Virus genome (UHGV): UHGV-0140552
Source of the DNA: a virus
DNA length: 35,002 bases
Direction: 5' to 3' (one strand)
Positions 1,643-13,175 of this stretch are shown in pieces (positions within the stretch are counted from its first letter, which is position 1; every line of letters starts with the position of its first letter). The position numbers and the translations under genes were made by a program. The notes beneath the pieces were generated by a model. The model did no database searches and was not told the origin of the DNA. It saw only the letters and a list, made by a program, of their open reading frames with translations.

Positions 1643-2209
1643 TCAGCGCACCTGCAGCGAACGTTCGCCAATCTCAAGGTGAGCGCCCGGCACTGGGTTT
1701 AACAGTTCTTCCGGTATCTCTCCGCCGTCAGCGGTAATCTGGGCCGCCGCTGCCTGTGCTGATTCAATCGCTTCCTTGATGGCTTTCTTGTCCGGAGTGA
1801 CTAACGTCTGAACTGTCACTAATTCATCCGGCAGTAATTCATCATTATCGATCACGACGTTTATAGCTCCCTTACGTGCGGTAAAGGTATTTTTGGCGGT
1901 TTTAACCGTATCCTGACCGGCGGCCAGTAGACACTGGAGAACATATTTCTTCAGGTTCGTGATCTTACCTTCGAATGATTTTTTGCGGGCGGCAAGGCGT
2001 TTGGCCTCTTCATCGCAGGTTTTTGCCAGGCCTTCCAGATTGCGAACGTGGACGAAAACGGCATCCAGTTTATCGCCGAGTTGTAACTCAAGACCTTCCA
2101 TTGTGTCGGCGATCATTTCAGGAGACAGACCAGCACCGTCTTCGTTTTCCAGTAGTGCCTGGAGTTTTGACATATCGGCTGCGATAGCAATTGCAGTGGT
2201 GGAAGTCAT
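1643..2209 (-). CDS. Gp157-like phage protein (188 aa), recombination-module associated
   Basis: Coiled-coil-rich acidic protein with an EEAKRLAARKK...NLKKYV segment resembling the Siphovirus Gp157 family as I recall it. Translationally coupled (TAATG overlap) to the upstream annealing-protein gene. Confidence 0.55.
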   Translation of the reverse strand: MTSTTAIAIAADMSKLQALLENEDGAGLSPEMIADTMEGLELQLGDKLDAVFVHVRNLEGLAKTCDEEAKRLAARKKSFEGKITNLKKYVLQCLLAAGQDTVKTAKNTFTARKGAINVVIDNDELLPDELVTVQTLVTPDKKAIKEAIESAQAAAAQITADGGEIPEELLNPVPGAHLEIGERSLQVR

Positions 2210-4401
2210 TATGCTTTCTCCTCGGCTTTATTCAGTTCTTTAATGCGCCCATCTTTGATGGAGATGAGTCGGCGGAGCCGGCCAGACAGATAACGTTCAT
2301 GCTGCGTGTCGCCGTTGGCCTGGGCGGCTTTAATGTGAACATCGATCTCACGTGCGATAGGGGAAAACACACCGTTGATTTCGTTCACCGTCACGCCATG
2401 CGCCAGGGTATTAGCAACGCGGCTTAATTTATCGTCAAACTCCTGGCGGAGCCGTGCTGCATCTTCGGCTGATTCGCTGGCGTTCTTCAGGTCAAACTCG
2501 GCCTTGTTCTTCTGGCGGTACTCCAGATTGTCGTAAAGCCCCATAAAGATATCGCCACTGAATCCGAGGCCGGATAACGCTTTTTTGGTCGCATCTGTCA
2601 GTGATTTTTTGGCTGCTTCGCCGTCGCAGGTGATCCCGTATTTACTACCGTAAATGTAGGGTGTACAGCCGTATGCTGTTTCCTCACCTCGTACTCCGTT
2701 CAGGATGTACCAGAGCCGGACAGTCACAACATGGTGCTGTTCGTTGACGGTATTACCATTCCCATCAAGAACCAGCTCCCACGATGCGTTGTTGTCTTTG
2801 CCTTTTACTTGCCGAGTGATCGGCGCGCCAATATCGAAACGCTCTTCAACAATATCCACGCCCCAGCCGATGCCCTTAGGGCCAAACTCACGTGTGGCAA
2901 GCATGGTCATGTAGGTACCGTTGATCGAGGTGCCACCGCCGTTCTGTGTGAAAGCCTTAGTAAACCTTTCGTCGGTTTTAAATACGCGTTTCCAGAGGTC
3001 TAAATTGTCTTCCCCGATGATTGGTTTTCCGACAGCCTGCACAACATCCTCAGCGTTAGGCAGGCTTTCAGCGTGAGCGATTTGTTTTGCTAAACGCTCG
3101 GAATCATCAGCCAGTTTTTCAGCCTTAACGCTTAACTTCTCTTCCGGCTCTGCACCTTCACCAGAGGCATATACGCCATAACCCATATCATTGAGCGTCT
3201 CACGCGCCTGTTTGGCCTGGGTGTCGGTTACAACCGGCTGCTGCGCTTCCACTTTTTCGCCCACGTTTGAGGCGGTATTTTGCGTCGCCTCTGGTTGTTT
3301 AACGGATCCTGTCTCGGTTTCCTCAAAGCGGCCGTTGGCCGCCAGCCATGAATCGATATGGCGGCGCAGGCTGTCAGGGAAATGGTAGGTATCTTTCGCC
3401 GGTACGTTTTGTACCACGCCGAAGATGCTGGCGCGGTCGTATTTGAGTATCTGCGGCGTGGTGTGCAGCGATGCTGACCAGCGTTTAAAATCTTCCCGGT
3501 CATCGGAAATCATCTTCTTAGCGTCCAGAAGGTTTCCGGATAGTACCGGCGCATCAGGCGCCAGCGGGAGAAGGGCGGTAGCGATCTCCTGATCCAGCGT
3601 TGCATAAGTGTGTTTATATCCGCGCTTAGAAATTACCACGGGTGTTTTATCATCGGTGCTGGTGCTGGTGCTGGTGCTGGTGCTGGTGCTGGTGCTGGTG
3701 CTGGTGCTGAGAGCGGTATTTTTATATACGCCGGGGGCCAGTTCGTCGCGCTTGCCCGGATTCTCAAGCCAGCGTTTAACGAACTGAGAGATAGCCGCTT
3801 TGCCCGGCGTCTGGTTTTCAAAGTGGGAGAAAATACCCTGAATAAGATTGTTCAGACCTTCCACATGCATGCTTTGAACCGGGAAGTTATTTTGCAGGGC
3901 ACACAGAACATTAAAGTTAAAGCGATCTTCCTCTTCAAATTCCCCATCGTGGTTTTTCAGATTATCCAGATAATCCACAACCTGAGAATAAAGATGGCCA
4001 TCAATCGCCGCGGTACTAAAAAGCAGGACGGCAGCAAAGCGTTCATCAGGGGAAACGGTCATCAGGTCGATCACTTCATCGTCGGCAGGTAAACCTGCAC
4101 CACTTCCGGAAGCGCTATCCTGCGCAGTAGAAACCCATTTTTCACCGTCAAAAGTATGCTGCTGGGCGAATGACTCATCGAACTGGCCAACGGTCGGCAG
4201 CGGCTGGCCTTCAACGTGTTCCCACAGTTTCGGTTTGAAATAGTTGTCACCATTGGCCGGGTATGATTCCCAGAGTTTGCCGGTCATAATGCTTTCGGCC
4301 ACTTTTTTGTTTGGCGCATCGATGGCGATCGCCAGCTGCACGGCGCCGCAGTCTTTAATCGCCGATTTCTTTGGCTCAAATGAGCCGTTGTAGATGGTCA
4401 T
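2209..4401 (-). CDS. Large multidomain protein (730 aa) with C-terminal Rad52/Sak-type single-strand annealing domain and an internal (Ser-Thr)9 linker
   Basis: Segment GCTPYIYGSKYGITCDGEAAKKSLTDATKKALSGLGFSGDIFMGLYDN matches the Rad52-family signature (K-x-A/S-V/L-TD-x-x-K-K/R-AL-x-x-F/L-G). Start placed at ATG 4399-4401, which has the GAGGAAAGACCA RBS motif; the ORF-track start at 4434 is a GTG without a Shine-Dalgarno. Confidence 0.75.
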   Translation of the reverse strand: MTIYNGSFEPKKSAIKDCGAVQLAIAIDAPNKKVAESIMTGKLWESYPANGDNYFKPKLWEHVEGQPLPTVGQFDESFAQQHTFDGEKWVSTAQDSASGSGAGLPADDEVIDLMTVSPDERFAAVLLFSTAAIDGHLYSQVVDYLDNLKNHDGEFEEEDRFNFNVLCALQNNFPVQSMHVEGLNNLIQGIFSHFENQTPGKAAISQFVKRWLENPGKRDELAPGVYKNTALSTSTSTSTSTSTSTSTSTDDKTPVVISKRGYKHTYATLDQEIATALLPLAPDAPVLSGNLLDAKKMISDDREDFKRWSASLHTTPQILKYDRASIFGVVQNVPAKDTYHFPDSLRRHIDSWLAANGRFEETETGSVKQPEATQNTASNVGEKVEAQQPVVTDTQAKQARETLNDMGYGVYASGEGAEPEEKLSVKAEKLADDSERLAKQIAHAESLPNAEDVVQAVGKPIIGEDNLDLWKRVFKTDERFTKAFTQNGGGTSINGTYMTMLATREFGPKGIGWGVDIVEERFDIGAPITRQVKGKDNNASWELVLDGNGNTVNEQHHVVTVRLWYILNGVRGEETAYGCTPYIYGSKYGITCDGEAAKKSLTDATKKALSGLGFSGDIFMGLYDNLEYRQKNKAEFDLKNASESAEDAARLRQEFDDKLSRVANTLAHGVTVNEINGVFSPIAREIDVHIKAAQANGDTQHERYLSGRLRRLISIKDGRIKELNKAEEKA
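3655..3708. repeat. Perfect hexanucleotide tandem repeat (GGTGCT)x9, in-frame within the 730-aa gene, encoding (ST)9
   Basis: Read directly: nine contiguous GGTGCT units on the plus strand; on the minus coding strand AGCACC gives S-T repeats. Confidence 0.95.
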
Positions 4402-4445
4402 TGGTCTTTCCTCTTGGTTACTGGCGCAGGTCACGCGCCGGTTAA

Positions 4446-4769: not shown

Positions 4770-4887
4770 AGCGACTCCTTGATGATATATACTCAGAGCC
4801 GATCAGCGGCTCTGTCGTTGGTCTTTCCTCGCTACAGGGTTGGTCCCCTGTAGCATTCTGGGCGGTTTGGTCACTGTCCCGGGTAAA

Positions 4888-4962
4888 TTAGCCCACTTCG
4901 GTGGGCTTTTTTACGCCTGAAGGTTGCCGGTCTTTCCCGGCTGTCAGGGTGGTCAGCCCCAT
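4888..4962 (-). CDS. Possible leader-peptide ORF (24 aa, MGLTTLTAGKDRQPSGVKKPTEVG) ending inside the terminator hairpin
   Basis: ATG at 4960-4962 is preceded by a perfect copy of the GAGGAAAGACCA initiation motif. The stop codon (4888-4890) sits at the base of the 4890-4907 hairpin. Very short and unverified. Confidence 0.25.
   Translation of the reverse strand: MGLTTLTAGKDRQPSGVKKPTEVG
4890..4912 (+). terminator. Intrinsic-terminator-like hairpin AGCCCAC-TTCG-GTGGGCT followed by TTTTT (plus-strand sense); A-tract on the other side, so possibly bidirectional
   Basis: 7-bp GC-rich stem, TTCG tetraloop, T-run 4908-4912. Located in the ~490-bp noncoding leader between the repressor gene and the early-left genes. 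Confidence 0.55.
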
Positions 4963-5169
4963 TGGTCTTTCCTCGTTACTGCGTGAATGCTTTAAAAAAA
5001 TGCCCGGGGCGCCCGGGCCAAGACTACACACAGCAATTCGCATTCGTTGCGGTCTTTCCCGCATGTCATCGTACTGTCGGCGACCCGAAGAATTCGCGCC
5101 CGTCTTTCCGGACTGTCAGAACTGTTTCTGAACAACTGCCGCGTGGTTAGTGCGTCGTTGATGTGATGT

Positions 5170-5263: not shown

Positions 5264-5650
5264 TTATTTTTGTTTGCGGGCTTGCAGTAACTCCTCAAAT
5301 AAACGATTGAAACCGTCTACTTTTTCGCGAAGTTCCGTTAAATGCCGCTCTTTTTCAGATTCTGGGAGTGACGAAAAGAGTTTTAAAAGCTCTGTTTCTC
5401 GTTCATCTAATGGCGGCGGGGTGTCTACCGGGGTTCCCGGAGTGGCGGCTTCATCGCCGTAAAGTATCCAGGTAGGGCTGCATTGAAGTGCGTTACTTAA
5501 AGCGAAAAGGTTTTTTCCGCCAGGCTCACTATCACCGGTCTCCCACTGGGAGATAGTGACGTGCGCGACGTTAACCAGCTTCGCTAAAGCGCGCTGAGTA
5601 AGTTTGAGATCTTTTCTACGCGCTCTGATGCGCTCACCTGGCATTGTCAT
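5264..5650 (-). CDS. Phage repressor, HTH XRE-family (128 aa), RacR/CI-like, no S24 peptidase domain
   Basis: N-terminal HTH (LTQRALAKLVNVAHVTISQWETG). Divergent from a cro-like gene, with palindromic operators in the 80-bp intergenic region. Too short to carry a LexA-like autocleavage domain. Confidence 0.85.
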   Translation of the reverse strand: MTMPGERIRARRKDLKLTQRALAKLVNVAHVTISQWETGDSEPGGKNLFALSNALQCSPTWILYGDEAATPGTPVDTPPPLDERETELLKLFSSLPESEKERHLTELREKVDGFNRLFEELLQARKQK

Positions 5651-6678: not shown

Positions 6679-7671
6679 ATGAATATTTTGCCATTACTCG
6701 ACAGGCCGATCGCCTTCCAGCGTAGTTTCATTCGCCTGAATATCGGTGTGACGGCTGCACTGTTCCTGTCTCAAATGACTTACTGGACTAACCGATCCGA
6801 CGATGATGGATGGGTATATAAAACCCAGGAAGAATGGGAGGAAGAAACAGGCCTTTCCCGTTACGAACAGGAGGGGGCGCGTAAGAAACTTCGCTCAATT
6901 GGTGTACTGCTGGAAAAAAAGAAAGGTGTACCTGCTCGTCTTTTCTACAAGATTGATAATGATGTTTTATTTCAATCACTTGTAGCCGCAAACAAGAATG
7001 CGGAAAAACCACATACTGGAATGCGGAAAACCAGCAAACAAGTAAGTGGAAAACCAGCAAACTTTCTTACAGAGAATACTACAGAGAATATATATACCCC
7101 TAACCCCTTAGAGGGGGAAGGCGTTGAGTTAATTCTTTCTGATGCACAAAAAGCGCTGGAATTTTACAACGAGCAAACCGGTACCCGCTGCCGTGACCTG
7201 AAACCGTTTGTGATGATGCTGACGCCGACCACCACCCGGGAAGGTTACACCCTGGACGAATTGCAGTTAGTTATCCGCTGGGTGCTGGCCACATGGCGCC
7301 GCCGTGGCGATAGCCTGCCGAAGCCAGCGAACATCTGCCGGGTAAACCGCTTTGATGGTTATCTCGCTGACGCTGAAGCATGGGCGGTGACCGAAGCCGA
7401 TATTGACCCCGAAGCCGTTATGAACGGCTACAACGAAATTTTTGCTGACGCTCTGCCTGCTGCTGAACTCGACACCGACCGCCGCCGGATGATCACCCGT
7501 CTGGCCGCCCATATGAAAAACAAAACCACGGGCGCATTTCTGGGCTATTTCGAAAAATTCCGCGCTGACGCCTCCGATTTTTACTTTGGTGAAAATGGCG
7601 GATGGCGCGCCAGCTTTGACTACCTGATGAAGCCTGAAACATTGCGTAAAACTCGTGAGGGATCGCTATGA
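6679..7671 (+). CDS. Phage replication initiation protein (O-like / replisome organiser, 330 aa)
   Basis: Sits immediately upstream of, and translationally coupled to, the DnaB-type helicase gene. N-terminal DNA-binding-like region and a C-terminal region typical of phage replication proteins. Confidence 0.7.
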   Translation: MNILPLLDRPIAFQRSFIRLNIGVTAALFLSQMTYWTNRSDDDGWVYKTQEEWEEETGLSRYEQEGARKKLRSIGVLLEKKKGVPARLFYKIDNDVLFQSLVAANKNAEKPHTGMRKTSKQVSGKPANFLTENTTENIYTPNPLEGEGVELILSDAQKALEFYNEQTGTRCRDLKPFVMMLTPTTTREGYTLDELQLVIRWVLATWRRRGDSLPKPANICRVNRFDGYLADAEAWAVTEADIDPEAVMNGYNEIFADALPAAELDTDRRRMITRLAAHMKNKTTGAFLGYFEKFRADASDFYFGENGGWRASFDYLMKPETLRKTREGSL

Positions 7672-9056
7672 CTCCGCAGGAACTGGAATCTTGTGTACTG
7701 GCTGGACTGCTTAACGGTGGAGCAAGTCCGGACGCTTTCGACGTGATCGCATCGACGCCTGAAGAATCATTCAGCATTGTTTTTCATCGTCGCGCCTTCT
7801 CGGAAATCAAAAAACAGGCGTTGACGAACGGTCTGATCGATATGCTGTTTGTCAGTGAGGCTCTGGGAGGGAGTAGCCTGGCTGATTTATCAGAGATTTC
7901 GCGTATGCCCGCAACGGTACCAAACCTGAAAGGTTACGCCGGGAAAATGGTGAAGGCGTGGCGCAGCCGCCGTATGGCTGAATTACTGCAACATGGTGCT
8001 GATGGTATCCGCCAGGCGAATAATCAGGAGCAGCGCGATCAGATTGTCGAAACTGCCGTGGCGCAGCTGCTGGACATGACCGGCGACACTGGCGACGTGC
8101 AGCCGGTACACATGAGCGAATTATTGCCGGTGTACATGGAAACCATGCAGAAGCGCATGGACGGCGAAGAGGGTACTCGCAACCTGAAAACCGGGATCGA
8201 GGAACTGGACGATGCGACCGGCGGAATCAACCTGCAGGATTTGATTGTCGTCGCCGGGCGTCCGGGCATGGGAAAAACAGAATTTGCGCTGAAGATTGTC
8301 GATGGTGTTACCGCTGCTGGCGGTGGCGCGTTGATATTCAGCATGGAAATGGCCGCTGCGCAAATCGTAGAACGCTCTCTGGCGGGTTCTGGCAACATGT
8401 CAGTGTCACGCCTGCGTAATCCCCTCGATATGCAGGACGAGGACTGGGCGCGCTTTACCGCGGCCATGGAGACCATGAACGGGCGAGATATCTGGATCGT
8501 TGATGCTACCGATCTGACGATTGAGCAAATCCGCGCCGTTGCCGAAACGCATAAGCGCCGGTATCCGCATCTGGCGATGATCGTTGTCGATTACCTTGGC
8601 CTGATAAAAAAACCGAAGGCAGAGCGTAACGACCTCGCGATCGCCCACATATCCCGAAACCTAAAAACTATGGCTATGCGCCTGCATACGCCGACGTTCG
8701 CGCTTAGCCAGCTTTCCCGCGCCGTGGATTCCCGCCCGGCGGCCCAGCGCCGCCCGGTCATGTCAGACCTGCGCGATTCCGGTTCCATTGAGCAGGACGC
8801 CGACAGCATCATGTTTCTGTACCGCGATGAGGTTTACAACCCGGAAAGCCCGGCGGCTGGCGTCGCTGAAATTATCCTGGGTAAAAGCCGCTTCAGCGCC
8901 GCAGGCGCAATTATTTATCAGGAATTTAAAAACGGACACTTTCTGTCAATGGATCAGCATGTTGGCAAAGAGAAAACACGTATCCAACTGGAGGCCGCGA
9001 AACCCCGGAAACAACCCCGTAAATACTCAGAGAAATTCAATACCGATGCATTTTAA
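7668..9056 (+). CDS. Replicative DNA helicase, DnaB family (462 aa)
   Basis: Walker A GRPGMGKTEF, Walker B-like IVVDYLGLI, and overall DnaB C-terminal RecA-fold layout. Confidence 0.9.
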   Translation: MTPQELESCVLAGLLNGGASPDAFDVIASTPEESFSIVFHRRAFSEIKKQALTNGLIDMLFVSEALGGSSLADLSEISRMPATVPNLKGYAGKMVKAWRSRRMAELLQHGADGIRQANNQEQRDQIVETAVAQLLDMTGDTGDVQPVHMSELLPVYMETMQKRMDGEEGTRNLKTGIEELDDATGGINLQDLIVVAGRPGMGKTEFALKIVDGVTAAGGGALIFSMEMAAAQIVERSLAGSGNMSVSRLRNPLDMQDEDWARFTAAMETMNGRDIWIVDATDLTIEQIRAVAETHKRRYPHLAMIVVDYLGLIKKPKAERNDLAIAHISRNLKTMAMRLHTPTFALSQLSRAVDSRPAAQRRPVMSDLRDSGSIEQDADSIMFLYRDEVYNPESPAAGVAEIILGKSRFSAAGAIIYQEFKNGHFLSMDQHVGKEKTRIQLEAAKPRKQPRKYSEKFNTDAF

Positions 9057-9766: not shown

Positions 9767-10000
9767 ATGGCCGGGCAATCAGATTACTTGCCGCCCGGCT
9801 TACCGCTTAATCGCGCCAAATGGCCGCAGGAGTGCCAGATCAAAGAGCACTACGACATGCGGGCCGCGGCACTCATACGCCAGCTGTTCGAGAAAAAAGT
9901 TACTCGACAGGCCATCGTAGAGCAGATTGCAGCGACGCCGGAAAGCTACCGGGAGTTTTTCAAAGAACGATTAAATTTTTGGCGGGAGAAGCGGACATGA
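9767..10000 (+). CDS. Hypothetical small protein (77 aa)
   Basis: ORF packed between neighbours; stop overlaps the next start (ATGA). Confidence 0.5.
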   Translation: MAGQSDYLPPGLPLNRAKWPQECQIKEHYDMRAAALIRQLFEKKVTRQAIVEQIAATPESYREFFKERLNFWREKRT

Positions 10001-10167
10001 AATTTTCAACACCTGATTTTATGCATTGCAGCCGCAGGACGCTGATGCTGTTCGTACTCAGTGCAAACGTTGTTGGCTGGATAGTCATTATCGCTCTGAT
10101 ATGGGCTGGATGTGAGGTTGCACAGTGGGCGCTGGAATGTCTCCGCAGTAGTGGGGTGCTTGCGTGA
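9997..10167 (+). CDS. Small hydrophobic (membrane) protein, 56 aa
   Basis: ATG 9997 overlaps the upstream stop. One clear hydrophobic helix (LMLFVLSANVVGWIVIIALIWAG). The stop overlaps the GTG start of the methyltransferase gene. Confidence 0.4.
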   Translation: MKFSTPDFMHCSRRTLMLFVLSANVVGWIVIIALIWAGCEVAQWALECLRSSGVLA

Positions 10168-10754
10168 ATAACAAATACACCCTGATTTATTGCGATCCGC
10201 CCTGGACTTATCGCGACAAAGCCAACGATGGGGAACGCGGCGCCGGGCACAAATACCAGACCATGACTGTGCTCGATATCTGCCGTCTCCCGGTCTGGGA
10301 ACTGGCCGCTGAAAACTGCCTGCTGGCTATGTGGTGGGTACCTACTCAGCCGCTGGAGGCGTTACGAGTAGTCGAGGCGTGGGGGTTCCGCCTGATGACC
10401 ATGAAAGGCTTTACGTGGAACAAATGCTACAGCCGGCAGACCGACAAACTGGCCCTTGGAATGGGCCATATGACCAGGGCGAACAGTGAGGATTGCCTTT
10501 TCGCTGTGCAGGGGAAATTGCCCGCCCGGCTGGATGCCGGGATCGTTCAGTCATTCACGGCCCCGCGTCTGGAGCATTCGCGCAAACCGGATATCGTGCG
10601 CGAAAAGCTTGTGCAGCTGCTGGGCGATGTACCGCGTATTGAGTTATTCGCCCGCCAGTCTTCGCATGGTTTCGACGTGTGGGGCAACCAGTGTGAATCG
10701 CCAGCGGTGGCGCTGCTGCCGGGCATTGCGGAATATATCGGGGAGGTTTCTTAA
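10164..10754 (+). CDS. DNA N6-adenine methyltransferase, MT-A70 family (196 aa), orphan phage MTase, GTG start
   Basis: Catalytic DPPW motif (IYCDPPW) near the N-terminus. No adjacent restriction endonuclease gene. Confidence 0.85.
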   Translation: MNNKYTLIYCDPPWTYRDKANDGERGAGHKYQTMTVLDICRLPVWELAAENCLLAMWWVPTQPLEALRVVEAWGFRLMTMKGFTWNKCYSRQTDKLALGMGHMTRANSEDCLFAVQGKLPARLDAGIVQSFTAPRLEHSRKPDIVREKLVQLLGDVPRIELFARQSSHGFDVWGNQCESPAVALLPGIAEYIGEVS

Positions 10755-10919
10755 CCATGAATAACAGTACACAGGATTTTATAGACTATGAGTTCTCCAT
10801 GCTTCAAACTGTCACTATAGATTTTGTACTGACGGTATGTTAAAAATGTAGATGGATTTTTGTTTGACAAAAATTTAACCGCTTGTGTCCTTAAGAGTTT
10901 TATTAAAACTAGGTTTTTT

Positions 10920-11402
10920 ATGATAAAAATAGATGAACTAAAAGAAGCCGTTTCTACTTTTGATGACGTTTCTGATCTCAATGTTTCTAACAAAGGAGTT
11001 AATTTTAAATACCAAGGCGTTCAGACTATTATTAATACGTGTGAGAGTGATAAAATTTCAGCGAATAAAATAATTGTTATGAATTCTTTTAAGTCCCCGG
11101 AATCTATTGACAGTAAGATTATGGGTGAAAAAATCGCGGAGATTGTTAATATGACTTCGCTGTCCCCTGCGAAGACTACTTATGTACACTTCCCTGATGA
11201 TGGTGGAGCATTCTTTTTTAGAAATATATTTTCGGATAAATTAAATGCTTTGGAATATAATGACGATGTTTCCAGGCGGCTATTCTTATCTAATTTGAAG
11301 GTTGTTCTTCTCGGAATGATGCTGGAGAATTATAACTGCTTTCATGATGTTAAAGAAGAGGCTTCGAAACTGTGTGAGGCGCTGAATGATGAAAGCAAAT
11401 GA
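10920..11402 (+). CDS. Hypothetical cytoplasmic protein (160 aa), gene 1 of an AT-rich two-gene cassette
   Basis: ORF in a markedly AT-rich island. First ATG at 10920 (the ORF track extends to a TTG at 10860). No recognisable motif. Confidence 0.6.
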   Translation: MIKIDELKEAVSTFDDVSDLNVSNKGVNFKYQGVQTIINTCESDKISANKIIVMNSFKSPESIDSKIMGEKIAEIVNMTSLSPAKTTYVHFPDDGGAFFFRNIFSDKLNALEYNDDVSRRLFLSNLKVVLLGMMLENYNCFHDVKEEASKLCEALNDESK

Positions 11403-11787
11403 TGCTCCACGTATAATTATACAGCTGATTTTAAGTGCGTTTGTATTTTTTGCTTTCTCTTTTAAATATAAGGCCCAATTAATAGGGTTTCTTTCTGAAC
11501 AGGTATATTACCAATTGTTGATAATAACAGTCATATTGACTGGGTATTTTTCACGCTGGATTGATGAGTTGCGTATTTTCTTATGTCATCATTTTATGAT
11601 GACTTGCAATAAGCAATATAAAGTAAAGTATCTCAAGGACAATGCATCGGTTTTGTTAAAGCAGGCAGAGAATGCTAATATTTCAGAAGAAGCGAAAGCA
11701 ATGGTTTCTGAAATGACTGGTTCAGATTTTGAATTGGAGGTTAAAATTAAATCTTTAAGTGAGGAAATAAAAAGAATAAAAGGTTGA
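11386..11787 (+). CDS. Predicted membrane protein with 2 TM helices and a C-terminal coiled coil (133 aa), gene 2 of the AT-rich cassette
   Basis: Two hydrophobic segments (IIIQLILSAFVFFAFSF; QLLIITVILTGYF). Overlaps the upstream gene by 17 nt, implying co-translation. Confidence 0.65.
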   Translation: MMKANDAPRIIIQLILSAFVFFAFSFKYKAQLIGFLSEQVYYQLLIITVILTGYFSRWIDELRIFLCHHFMMTCNKQYKVKYLKDNASVLLKQAENANISEEAKAMVSEMTGSDFELEVKIKSLSEEIKRIKG

Positions 11788-11831
11788 TGGAGTGTTTATT
11801 ATTTGAGATAGGACTAATTATGAATTGTTAA

Positions 11832-11866
11832 ATAAATGAAGAGGTGATCTCACTCTCTTCATTTAT
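11832..11866 (+). terminator. Perfect 12-bp inverted repeat ATAAATGAAGAG / CTCTTCATTTAT with 11-nt loop; possible cassette terminator or protein-binding palindrome
   Basis: Read from sequence, 45 nt downstream of the cassette stop codon. The U-tract is weak. Confidence 0.4.
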
Positions 11867-11940
11867 CATCTAGTAAGTTATCAGTTCCAGTGGACAGAAA
11901 AAATAATATTTTACGTTGAGATAATTCCCTATGCATAGGT

Positions 11941-12147
11941 TCAGAAAATAATAGGGATGAGATGTAGGTTACTGGACAAAAATCGAGCTAGTAGGCCGAG
12001 TACATCGCTATGCTGATCCGATAGGATGATGCGCGAGTTAGTGGCCACATCAAATCGATCAGCAAACGCCTGTGTGGAAAGTGCGATGAGTCGCTGCCAA
12101 TCATCTCCTGCCCGTGTGCTTAAACTGTCAGCATAGCGAACAACCAT
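11941..12147 (-). CDS. Doubtful small ORF (68 aa from ATG 12147)
   Basis: ORF without a convincing Shine-Dalgarno. Could be a gene remnant. Confidence 0.25.
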   Translation of the reverse strand: MVVRYADSLSTRAGDDWQRLIALSTQAFADRFDVATNSRIILSDQHSDVLGLLARFLSSNLHLIPIIF

Positions 12148-12278
12148 ACCAGACAAAACAGAACCGTCAGAAATGGCGGTTTTCTTTATAATTCAATCGG
12201 ATATTTTGAGGTTTATTGTTGATTTTTAACGATTCGTGCTCTTAAAAATTTGCGCTCACTGTCAGTTGGTAGTATATA

Positions 12279-12298
12279 TACTGTAATTTTATACAGTA
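12279..12298. promoter_or_regulatory. LexA (SOS) box TACTGT-AATTTTAT-ACAGTA
   Basis: Perfect CTGT-N8-ACAG with the flanking TA/TA of the E. coli-type consensus TACTGTATATATATACAGTA. Overlaps a candidate promoter (-35 TTGGTA 12266-12271, -10 TATACA 12290-12295) and lies 20 nt upstream of a GTG start. Confidence 0.7.
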
Positions 12299-12318
12299 TT
12301 GTTGTTGAGGGAGAGGTA

Positions 12319-12510
12319 GTGGTTGATAAGAAAGACGCAGGAGACCTTCTCCCCGACGATGGTGATGTACTGATAACGTGTGAAAATGGGAAGATTAAGA
12401 AGACCAGAATTGTCCATTCCGATGAGCACGTAGCGACACTTAACGCGTTGTTTGAATTAGCTAAATTGACGGGTTATACCATTATCAAACCAGACGGCAA
12501 TATGCTATAA
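12319..12510 (+). CDS. Small protein (63 aa, GTG start) under the LexA box; candidate SOS-controlled antirepressor or induction factor
   Basis: GGGAGAGG Shine-Dalgarno 5-6 nt upstream of GTG 12319. The longer ORF-track call would place the LexA box inside the coding region. Confidence 0.5.
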   Translation: MVDKKDAGDLLPDDGDVLITCENGKIKKTRIVHSDEHVATLNALFELAKLTGYTIIKPDGNML

Positions 12511-12578
12511 TTACCCCGTTGGCCTGAACACCCAACACCATGTAATTCTGAACAATTGCTGCGCTAAAGGGGAACCCA

Positions 12579-13175
12579 ATGGCGCAGTATTCTTTTGTAA
12601 AAGCACCCGGCGGTGTATTAATTCCGGCAACGCCTGACGCCCGCGAATTCTTAGAAAAAAAAGTCCGCATGGGCGGTATTCTGTATGCGGATTTTAAACA
12701 GGCAAGGAACCCGGCATTTCACCGTAAATTTTTTGCCCTCCTGAATCTGGGATTTGATTACTGGCAACCTTCCGGCGGTGCAATATCGCCAGCCGATAAA
12801 AAACTGGTTCGTGGTTACGTGCAGCTGGTGGCCCACTATGCCGGGCATGCCGACACATTGCAGGAACTGGCGGATCAGTATCTGCGCGATGAGGCAGAAA
12901 AACGCGCCGGGAATATCAGCGCGGTTAAATCGTTTGAAGCTTTCCGTTCCTGGGTAACTATCGAAGCCGGTTTTTATACCGAATACCAGATGCCTGATGG
13001 CACCACCCGCAAGGAACCCAAATCCATATCGTTCGCAAAAATGGACGATGTAGAATTTTCCCAGCTGTACAAATCCGTATTAGACGTCCTCTGGAATTTT
13101 ATTTTATTCCGCACCTTCCCTAATCAGCAGGCAGCAGAAAACGCAGCCTCTCAGCTTTTCAGTTATGCGGCCTGA
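12579..13175 (+). CDS. Conserved nin-region phage protein (198 aa), possibly DUF1367-like
   Basis: Good Shine-Dalgarno (AAAGGGGA) and coding-like composition. The family name is a tentative recollection. Confidence 0.6.
   Translation: MAQYSFVKAPGGVLIPATPDAREFLEKKVRMGGILYADFKQARNPAFHRKFFALLNLGFDYWQPSGGAISPADKKLVRGYVQLVAHYAGHADTLQELADQYLRDEAEKRAGNISAVKSFEAFRSWVTIEAGFYTEYQMPDGTTRKEPKSISFAKMDDVEFSQLYKSVLDVLWNFILFRTFPNQQAAENAASQLFSYAA

Follow-up and report, generated by a model that had tools for sequence, protein, structure and literature searches.

A mobile gene pair coding for a predicted chaperone-fold protein and a small membrane protein in lambdoid prophages and ColE1-type plasmids

We analyzed two small overlapping genes carried by an AT-rich island of the virus genome UHGV-0140552 (35,002 nucleotides; this whole stretch is hereafter called the window): gene A (10920..11402, + strand), coding for a 160-aa soluble protein, and gene B (11386..11787, + strand), coding for a 133-aa membrane protein. 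They make up a conserved and horizontally mobile pair, in line with the accessory "moron" composed of a cytosolic and a small membrane partner announced by the original prediction, and we found no described relatives of it. The reading that we tentatively favour, without rating it as probable, is that of a toxin-antitoxin-like or abortive infection (Abi) module with a membrane effector; a defence role is plausible. Several observations speak for it. The pair is obligate and under purifying selection (ratio of nonsynonymous to synonymous substitution rates, dN/dS, 0.07-0.35), with B more conserved than A; A is acidic with a predicted peptide-binding chaperone fold while B is basic; the residues invariant in B are polar ones within its membrane helices; finally, the carriers and neighbours are of the sort usual for conflict or addiction modules, the insertion slot is common to AbiL, and the base composition is foreign in every backbone.

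Genes A and B and their products

The original prediction had described two overlapping, co-oriented genes, the second with two transmembrane helices, in a sharply AT-rich island of a nin-like region, placed between a methyltransferase gene and a LexA-controlled gene and followed by a perfect 12-bp inverted repeat; each of these points was recovered here. Both open reading frames (ORFs) are confirmed and overlap by 17 nt counting from the first ATG of B, or 14 nt from the ATG at 11389. The G+C content (GC) of the island (10755-11994) is 0.33 against 0.52 for the entire window; across 10750-12050 it is 0.30-0.37, to be compared with 0.55-0.58 upstream. A longer form of A, starting at the TTG at 10860, was considered and rejected, given the conserved N-terminus MIKIDELKEA and the DNA common to other prophage backbones, which begins at 10898.

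The AlphaFold2 model of A (predicted local distance difference test, pLDDT, 89; predicted template modelling score, pTM, 0.83) consists of one chaperone-like domain over the whole length, with the topology helix, four strands, helix, two strands and a long C-terminal helix. This is an alpha-beta fold, i.e. an antiparallel sheet with helices packed on one face, as in the superfamily of YbjN and the class I chaperones of type III secretion systems (T3SS); the closest structural matches belong to the non-secretion YbjN group. A is acidic, with an isoelectric point (pI) of 4.86, and with its homologues covers 157-171 aa and pI 4.74-5.19. Conserved residues of A include F29, N77, P83, K85, F98, N102, D106, N125, L131, M133 and E136. 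No helix-turn-helix, ribbon-helix-helix or AbrB match was found in A with Pfam. In word-indexed searches of 5.8 billion proteins A had 4 clusters and B had 7; with a profile search the number for A rose to 10. An exhaustive hidden Markov model (HMM) search of 1.84 billion representative proteins gave 14 A clusters, all with an expectation value (E) below 1e-18 and none weaker.

B is basic (pI 8.8; 8.8-9.3 with its homologues). Its start conserved in relatives, and probably the one used, is the ATG at 11389 and not the first ATG at 11386. Of the two membrane helices predicted by hydropathy the first is clear and the second weaker: helix 1 (residues 9-26) is strongly hydrophobic, with a Kyte-Doolittle value of 1.95, against about 1.1-1.3 for helix 2 (residues 38-56). 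The AlphaFold2 model has a pLDDT of about 88 over residues 11-70, and the C-terminal 60 residues are modelled with low confidence as amphipathic helices. The distribution of charges, by the positive-inside rule, would place both termini in the cytoplasm. The residues invariant across 13 diverse homologues are I10-I12, Q13, L14, L16, S37, Q39, Y41, Y42, Q43, Y54, H68 and E116; they cluster in the membrane hairpin and include the polar Q13, S37, Q39, Y41, Y42, Q43, Y54 and H68. The tail of the same sequences has an acidic motif, (S/T)D(F/I)ELE. Since the membrane helices are the most conserved part of B and contain polar residues, specific helix packing is suggested, whether within an oligomer or pore or with a membrane target. 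A role of the hairpin as a mere anchor is unlikely.

Wherever both ends of the pair are on the contig, A lies directly 5' of B and overlaps it. This holds for about 15 distinct pair variants from prophages, plasmids and metagenome contigs, with A identities down to about 18-25%. The overlap is 4-20 nt in most loci and about 40 nt, by gene call, in one of them (L026). The B homologues downstream of A are 129-146 aa long, and in the eight loci checked the 3' end of A contains a GAGG Shine-Dalgarno sequence for B. On this conserved arrangement A and B are shown to be an obligate pair with signals of translational coupling.

The two genes diverge to different extents. In every pairwise comparison A diverges more than B, with 24-69% against 38-97% identity. 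The dN/dS values are 0.10-0.35 for A and 0.07-0.13 for B, by which measure both genes are under purifying selection. The comparison with the sister prophage L010 is telling: the nucleotide identity is ~95% in the MT-A70 methyltransferase gene upstream, drops to 67-78% over the spacer and A, and returns to 92-96% in B and to 93-96% in the gene that follows, and the synonymous divergence (dS) is 1.67 for A, 0.22 for B and 0.28 for MT-A70. Such a dS of A beside the low dS of B and MT-A70 points to an old divergent A allele swapped by recombination beside a constant B and, because both genes are under purifying selection, to allele shuffling rather than runaway positive selection. Rapid positive selection on A, considered in view of its 69% identity to L010 against 97% for B, was rejected: dS is saturated at 1.67 and dN/dS is 0.11. 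The pattern of divergence is that of an effector that stays constant beside a partner that can be exchanged.

Phage and plasmid homes of the pair

The pair is found in lambdoid prophages of Klebsiella and Citrobacter and in viral contigs, always right after the replication module. A check for co-occurrence in other prophages, proposed with the original prediction, found A and B adjacent in at least five lambdoid backbones as well as in ColE1-type plasmids. These backbones carry DnaB and MT-A70 (the window itself); DnaT/lambda-P and DUF977, then DinI; DUF1627, then DNA polymerase III (Pol III) theta and DinI; lambda O/P, then NinB/NinE/NinG; and a further type (L017). On the lambda O/P-NinB backbone the position of A/B is, as we take it from the lambda map, that of ren. 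The DNA common to the backbones is limited to 10898-11782, i.e. a ribosome-binding site and the two genes. The GC of the cassette is 0.29-0.35 in every backbone, for host backbones of 0.37-0.56.

In the divergent half of the family a strongly conserved region 5' of A corresponds to the RNAI of ColE1, the antisense RNA that controls replication (Rfam RF00106, 50-94 bits). RNAI is on the A/B strand and ends 45-55 nt before the ATG of A (about 145 nt in L022). The conserved hairpin 5' of A in these divergent loci had been considered as a new regulatory RNA; this was rejected, the hairpin being the ColE1 RNAI terminator. The gap between RNAI and A presumably holds the divergent RNAII promoter (TTGACG/TTGACC ... 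TAACCT/TAGTCT, other strand), as read from what is known of ColE1. Two of these loci, L022 (Rouxiella silvae, 4,773 bp) and L028 (6,578 bp, with Rop), have overlapping ends and therefore appear circular. Three complete E. coli plasmids of 2,973-2,974 bp, among them NZ_CP045830.1 with 2,974 bp, are made up of Rop, RNAI, genes similar to A and B and a small mobA, so that A/B is their sole cargo; their A-like gene aligns with the A profile with an hhalign probability of 86% (E 5e-6). As judged from these sequences, small ColE1-type plasmids are the more diverse home of the family, and this home agrees with a function in plasmid addiction (toxin-antitoxin) no less than with phage defence.

One locus joins the two homes: L015 has CI/Cro (S24 repressor), HNH and DnaT-type genes and a full RNAI (6847-6947) beside A/B, and RNAI is also present in L016. 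By its gene content, which apart from RNAI looks like that of a temperate phage early region, L015 resembles a fossil of plasmid-to-phage capture; with their RNAI, the two loci would represent a plasmid fragment that a phage has captured or else a phage-plasmid hybrid.

Toxin-antitoxin or Abi-like neighbours of A/B were found in two plasmid contexts. Over all the loci, YoeB/YefM, a sub-threshold Abi_2 protein and an Ltp-type lipoprotein were seen next to the pair. The latter is in L028, which also carries DUF4190 and DUF805 beside A/B, and STAXI and EFASI RNAs at 4287-4439 and 4844-4994 respectively (Rfam, 82 and 89 bits).

Other genes of the loci carrying the pair were also recorded. A clear Pol III theta homologue adjoins the pair in L007/L008, and a 77-aa protein of the window (9767-10000) gives a weak match to the same subunit (NCBIfam E 0.0033). 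In the sister prophages L010 (8941-9234) and L011 (8941-9225) a gene of the Acb2/Tad1-hairpin family, a family of anti-CBASS (cyclic oligonucleotide-based antiphage signalling system) and anti-Thoeris sponges, lies a few genes 3' of A/B. L001 and L004, which are DUF977-type prophages with A/B, encode just beyond the Q antiterminator (10153-12483, - strand) a protein of 1,054 aa that combines Metallophos and nSTAND NTPase domains; its gene is a candidate for STAND-type defence.

The cargo slot of the window and its borders

The window is a prophage with an integrase (1-1017), a CI-type repressor (5264-5650), a YdaT/CII-like protein and a DnaB helicase (7668-9056), followed 3' of DnaB by Nin-type genes (DUF1367, HNH, RecA-dependent nuclease) and then virion genes. 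No close relative of it was found among sequenced phages. In the early-left region a 741-aa ORF (2209-4434, - strand) is without Pfam match.

The nin-like location of the pair can be described as a variable cargo slot of the early-right region. Its left border is the MT-A70 methyltransferase gene (10164..10754, + strand; Pfam E 1.3e-22). The AT-rich intergenic spacer from the MT-A70 stop to A (10755..10919, + strand) is marked by a drop of GC and forms the left junction of the inserted island. It is 67% identical to that of L010, against ~95% for the flanking MT-A70, and is not conserved in the other backbones. No convincing + strand sigma-70 site was found in this spacer upstream of A. The right border is a 63-aa phrog_340 gene with a GTG start (12319-12510, + strand), 3' of a LexA-box-like palindrome, TACTGTAATTTTATACAGTA (CTG-N10-CAG; 12279-12298, + strand), which is read as LexA from its agreement with the consensus. 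Behind this near-consensus box, the phrog_340 gene may be an SOS-controlled antirepressor-like switch gene. The C-terminus of its product is weakly like the C-termini of anti-repressors (phrog_4792, E 0.0013), and in other backbones DinI holds the equivalent LexA-controlled position.

The same slot was examined in 80 sister prophages from IMG/VR (L030-L109), whose MT-A70 protein is 82-98% identical to that of the window. None of the 80 has A/B. Their slot, from MT-A70 to phrog_340/DUF1367, holds 0.97-3.6 kb of other cargo: AbiLi and AbiLii (PADLOC E 1e-70 and 2e-12) on the opposite strand with a GC of 0.36, a low-GC HNH-type protein, a DUF6338 membrane protein, an HNH homing-type endonuclease, a C5-methyltransferase of 650-750 aa, and a dATP/dGTP (MazG-like) pyrophosphohydrolase with Ead/Ea22. 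As compared across these genomes, the interval 10755-12318 is a variable cargo hot spot of Klebsiella-type lambdoid prophages. Several cargo proteins are unannotated: one of 311 aa in L053, whose sole match (HNH_5) is sub-threshold, and others of 76 and 104 aa without any family match.

Downstream of B, the perfect 12-bp inverted repeat (11832-11843 / 11855-11866) has an 11-nt loop and a U-rich tail on the - strand only; one such repeat is observed for 0.007 expected (300 shuffles). As RNA, 11832-11866 has a folding energy of -17.2 kcal/mol (z -3.8), and L010 retains the hairpin via a compensatory GAG/CTC to GGG/CCC change. It probably marks the end of a transcript. Hairpins are found 3' of B in most other loci and are not homologous to this one. 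No RNA family was found by an Rfam scan of 10500-12700.

Further downstream lies a decayed 3' remnant (11995..12126, + strand; AEYIAMLIR*DDARVSGHIKSISKRLCGKCDESLPIISCPCA*) of a 112-120 aa CxxC...C gene, recognized by comparing its translation with the gene that is intact, just 5' of the LexA box, in most sister prophages (e.g. L034, L039, L035). Only the 3' end is left in the window, with an in-frame TAG and an early stop, and L010 holds a similar fragment. This surviving 3' end marks the right junction of the insertion and indicates that the A/B segment was inserted by a recombination that destroyed the resident gene. The event would account for the odd spacer between the hairpin and the intrinsic-terminator-like hairpin of the truncated resident gene (12160..12183, + strand; -12.8 kcal/mol, z -3.6). 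A 71-aa ORF on the - strand (11941-12156) is not taken for a gene, being broken in L010 and occupying the region of the + strand gene remnant.

Relation to known systems and possible functions

The original prediction stated that neither protein has a recognised motif, and this agrees with our searches. A and B gave no match with Pfam, PADLOC or NCBIfam, A gave none with PHROGs, and the sole PHROG match of B is phrog_28117 (E 0.0014), whose function is unassigned. None of the 5,027 models of PADLOC-DB v2 matched A or B at E <= 1. Profile searches of the PDB returned noise only, namely WNK3 and IL-33 with A and bZIP coiled coils with B. The island had no megablast match in 5,426 E. coli genomes or in 50,697 phage genomes, and tblastn of A and B against the same phage genomes gave nothing meaningful. 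Literature searches for the pair, for the accessions of the E. coli plasmid proteins and for chaperone-fold antitoxins retrieved no description. A/B is outside every described family: the HMM and structure searches proposed with the original prediction yielded no homology to a sequence family, and a likeness at the level of the fold for A, to the YbjN and T3SS chaperones. In its general kind, that of mobile two-gene modules with a presumed membrane effector, A/B is similar to known systems.

This likeness has its limits. The YbjN family (E. coli YbjN, Erwinia AmyR 5fr7, Deinococcus DR_1245 4h5b, DUF2170 8q8o) resembles A in structure only: there is no match of A to Pfam YbjN, hhalign to E. coli YbjN gives a probability of 0.1%, the identities are 6-9%, and A has an unusually long C-terminal helix (residues 116-156). 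YbjN proteins are encoded on the chromosome as singletons and are not known to have an obligate partner in the membrane. The T3SS class I chaperones (SicP, CesT/VecA, SycN/YscB, ExsC, Spa15, SycH) have in common with A their small acidic character (pI about 4-5) and share no sequence similarity with it; unlike their substrates, the partner of A is an inner-membrane protein of the producing cell. Class I chaperones do shield membrane-spanning substrates. Chaperones of the T3SS/YbjN type have been noted in predicted immune systems by Aravind and colleagues (PMC9503650).

Among the two-component systems, lambda RexA/RexB is similar to A/B in that a prophage carries it and one of its two proteins is cytosolic, the other in the membrane. 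The original prediction held that the sequences are not RexAB-like, and this is upheld: A/B has no PADLOC RexAB match, B has two hydrophobic helices whereas RexB has four transmembrane helices, and RexA, of 279 aa, has a different architecture. Moreover rexAB is in the immunity region and is expressed with cI, while A/B lies after the replication genes. In CptA/CptB (YgfX/SdhE), one of the toxin-antitoxin pairs with a small membrane toxin, the gene of the soluble protein comes first, followed by that of an inner-membrane protein of ~135 aa with two N-terminal membrane helices and a cytosolic tail, and the soluble partner neutralises the two-helix membrane toxin by binding it. A/B has the same gene order and a similar membrane-protein layout, but no Pfam Cpta_toxin or SdhE match, and the fold of A differs. 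With type II toxin-antitoxin systems A/B shares the organization in two small overlapping genes on plasmids and prophages. AbiL is comparable by position only: it occupies the same MT-A70 to phrog_340 slot in L058, L061, L062 and L063 and is likewise low in GC, but its proteins are unrelated (AAA ATPase and RloB/Toprim-like) and are encoded on the opposite strand.

The toxin-antitoxin-like or Abi reading can be put as a mechanism. B would enter the inner membrane as a two-helix hairpin with both termini in the cytoplasm, and the Gln, Tyr, Ser and His residues of the hairpin would serve self-association or binding to a membrane target, the active form perturbing the membrane. A would be made just before B by coupled translation and would bind the basic cytosolic juxtamembrane region and tail of B, as T3SS class I chaperones wrap their substrates. 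It would either hold B inactive or act as a variable specificity or sensor subunit. The loss or titration of A, for which plasmid loss, phage infection or proteolysis are possible triggers, would then free B. The physical binding of A to B, the toxicity of B, the trigger and a phage-resistance or addiction phenotype are what we infer here.

Several points weigh against this reading. A/B shows no homology to a known toxin, antitoxin, Abi, superinfection exclusion (Sie) or holin family in Pfam, PHROGs, PADLOC or NCBIfam, and A is without a recognisable DNA-binding domain such as serves most type II antitoxins in autoregulation. The genes are co-oriented with the early lytic operon in the window, no good promoter was found upstream, and neither promoter nor terminator is carried along between backbones; because of this co-orientation and the lack of an own promoter, expression in the lysogen is only presumed. 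The slot also holds non-defence cargo, i.e. the HNH endonucleases, the C5-methyltransferase and the MazG-like pyrophosphohydrolase. The pair adjoins the replication module in plasmids and phages, which could point to a role in replication or maintenance. Finally the family is rare: it is present in 3 of 100,044 species-representative genomes and 3 of 5,426 complete E. coli genomes. Of the defence or exclusion module put forward by the original prediction, the undescribed mobile pair in a slot used by AbiL stands, while the function assigned to it is a reasonable candidate, to be broadened so as to take in plasmid addiction in view of the ColE1 association; the non-defence cargo of that slot and the missing promoter count against it.

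A role in the element's own biology, for example as a membrane-associated factor for replication, copy-number control, maintenance or reprogramming of the host envelope, co-expressed with the replication module, would explain why the pair always adjoins replication functions, following O/P, DnaB or DnaT genes in phages, and why it is co-oriented with the early operon without an own promoter. On ColE1 plasmids the spacing from the RNAI terminator is kept, on the same strand, in lineages whose A is barely alignable, and this constancy suggests expression by RNAI read-through. YbjN/AmyR-family proteins, furthermore, affect exopolysaccharide and stress phenotypes. The sporadic spread of A/B, absent from the 80 close sister prophages and from nearly all ColE1 plasmids, implies however that it is dispensable for replication; with its foreign base composition in every backbone and no nucleic-acid-binding fold evident, we consider such a role unlikely. 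We give a similarly low rank to non-lethal superinfection or entry exclusion, in which inner-membrane B would block DNA entry or another envelope step and A would stabilise or target B. B is indeed small and located in the inner membrane, and its membrane helices are conserved; prophages and plasmids carry the pair as cargo, AbiL uses the same slot, and one plasmid relative lies near the Ltp-type lipoprotein gene, from a family that includes a superinfection-exclusion protein. But the known Sie proteins, such as P22 SieA, T4 Imm/Sp, Ltp and Sim, act alone and do not require a chaperone-like partner in the cytosol, PADLOC gave no match and PHROGs none apart from phrog_28117, and here too the expression in the lysogen is presumed.

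That the pair serves lysis, B being a class II holin-like pore former and A a cytosolic inhibitor setting the timing, appears very improbable. The small size of B, its two membrane helices, its charged cytosolic C-terminus and its Met-Met-Lys start in the window would suit a holin, but the double Met is absent in most relatives and no holin match was obtained with PHROGs or Pfam. The pair is bordered by MT-A70 and the LexA-box gene and adjoins no endolysin or spanin; the related prophages L012 and L013 have their own holin-lysozyme cassette elsewhere, and the 3-kb plasmids carry the pair without lysis function. We hold as most improbable of all that A is a T3SS chaperone and B its cognate secreted substrate, inserted Tir-like into a target membrane. 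A has the fold, size and acidity of a class I chaperone, and the hairpin of B resembles Tir, the substrate of CesT. Nevertheless A matches neither CesT nor another chaperone in Pfam, its top structural matches are the non-secretion YbjN group, and the pair lies in phage early regions and on 3-kb plasmids, not beside effector loci. No T3SS genes were found in any of the loci read, and the hosts, mainly Klebsiella, with Citrobacter, Rouxiella, Enterobacter and the E. coli carrying the plasmids, are mostly without injectisomes.

A more specific version of the toxin-antitoxin-like or Abi reading, which taken as a whole seems to us rather unlikely, sees in A/B a new class in which a protein of secretion-chaperone fold gates a two-helix partner that forms pores or disrupts the membrane, with ColE1 as the ancestral home, expression by RNAI read-through and a later capture by prophages. 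The fixed position of A/B 45-55 nt 3' of the RNAI terminator would tie its dosage to the copy-number control circuit, and lambdoid prophages would later have taken the pair into their early-region cargo slots, leaving the RNAI fossil in L015.

If B is a chaperone-gated membrane toxin, the pair would represent a new architecture among the toxin-antitoxin, Abi and exclusion systems with membrane effectors, and would give the type III chaperone/YbjN fold a role outside secretion. The conserved order RNAI-A-B would exemplify accessory genes riding the antisense-RNA promoter of a plasmid. In Klebsiella lambdoid prophages the slot 3' of MT-A70 represents a new hot spot of cargo, which can be mined for further systems, and the natural 3-kb plasmids with A/B as sole cargo make the system ready-made for experiment.

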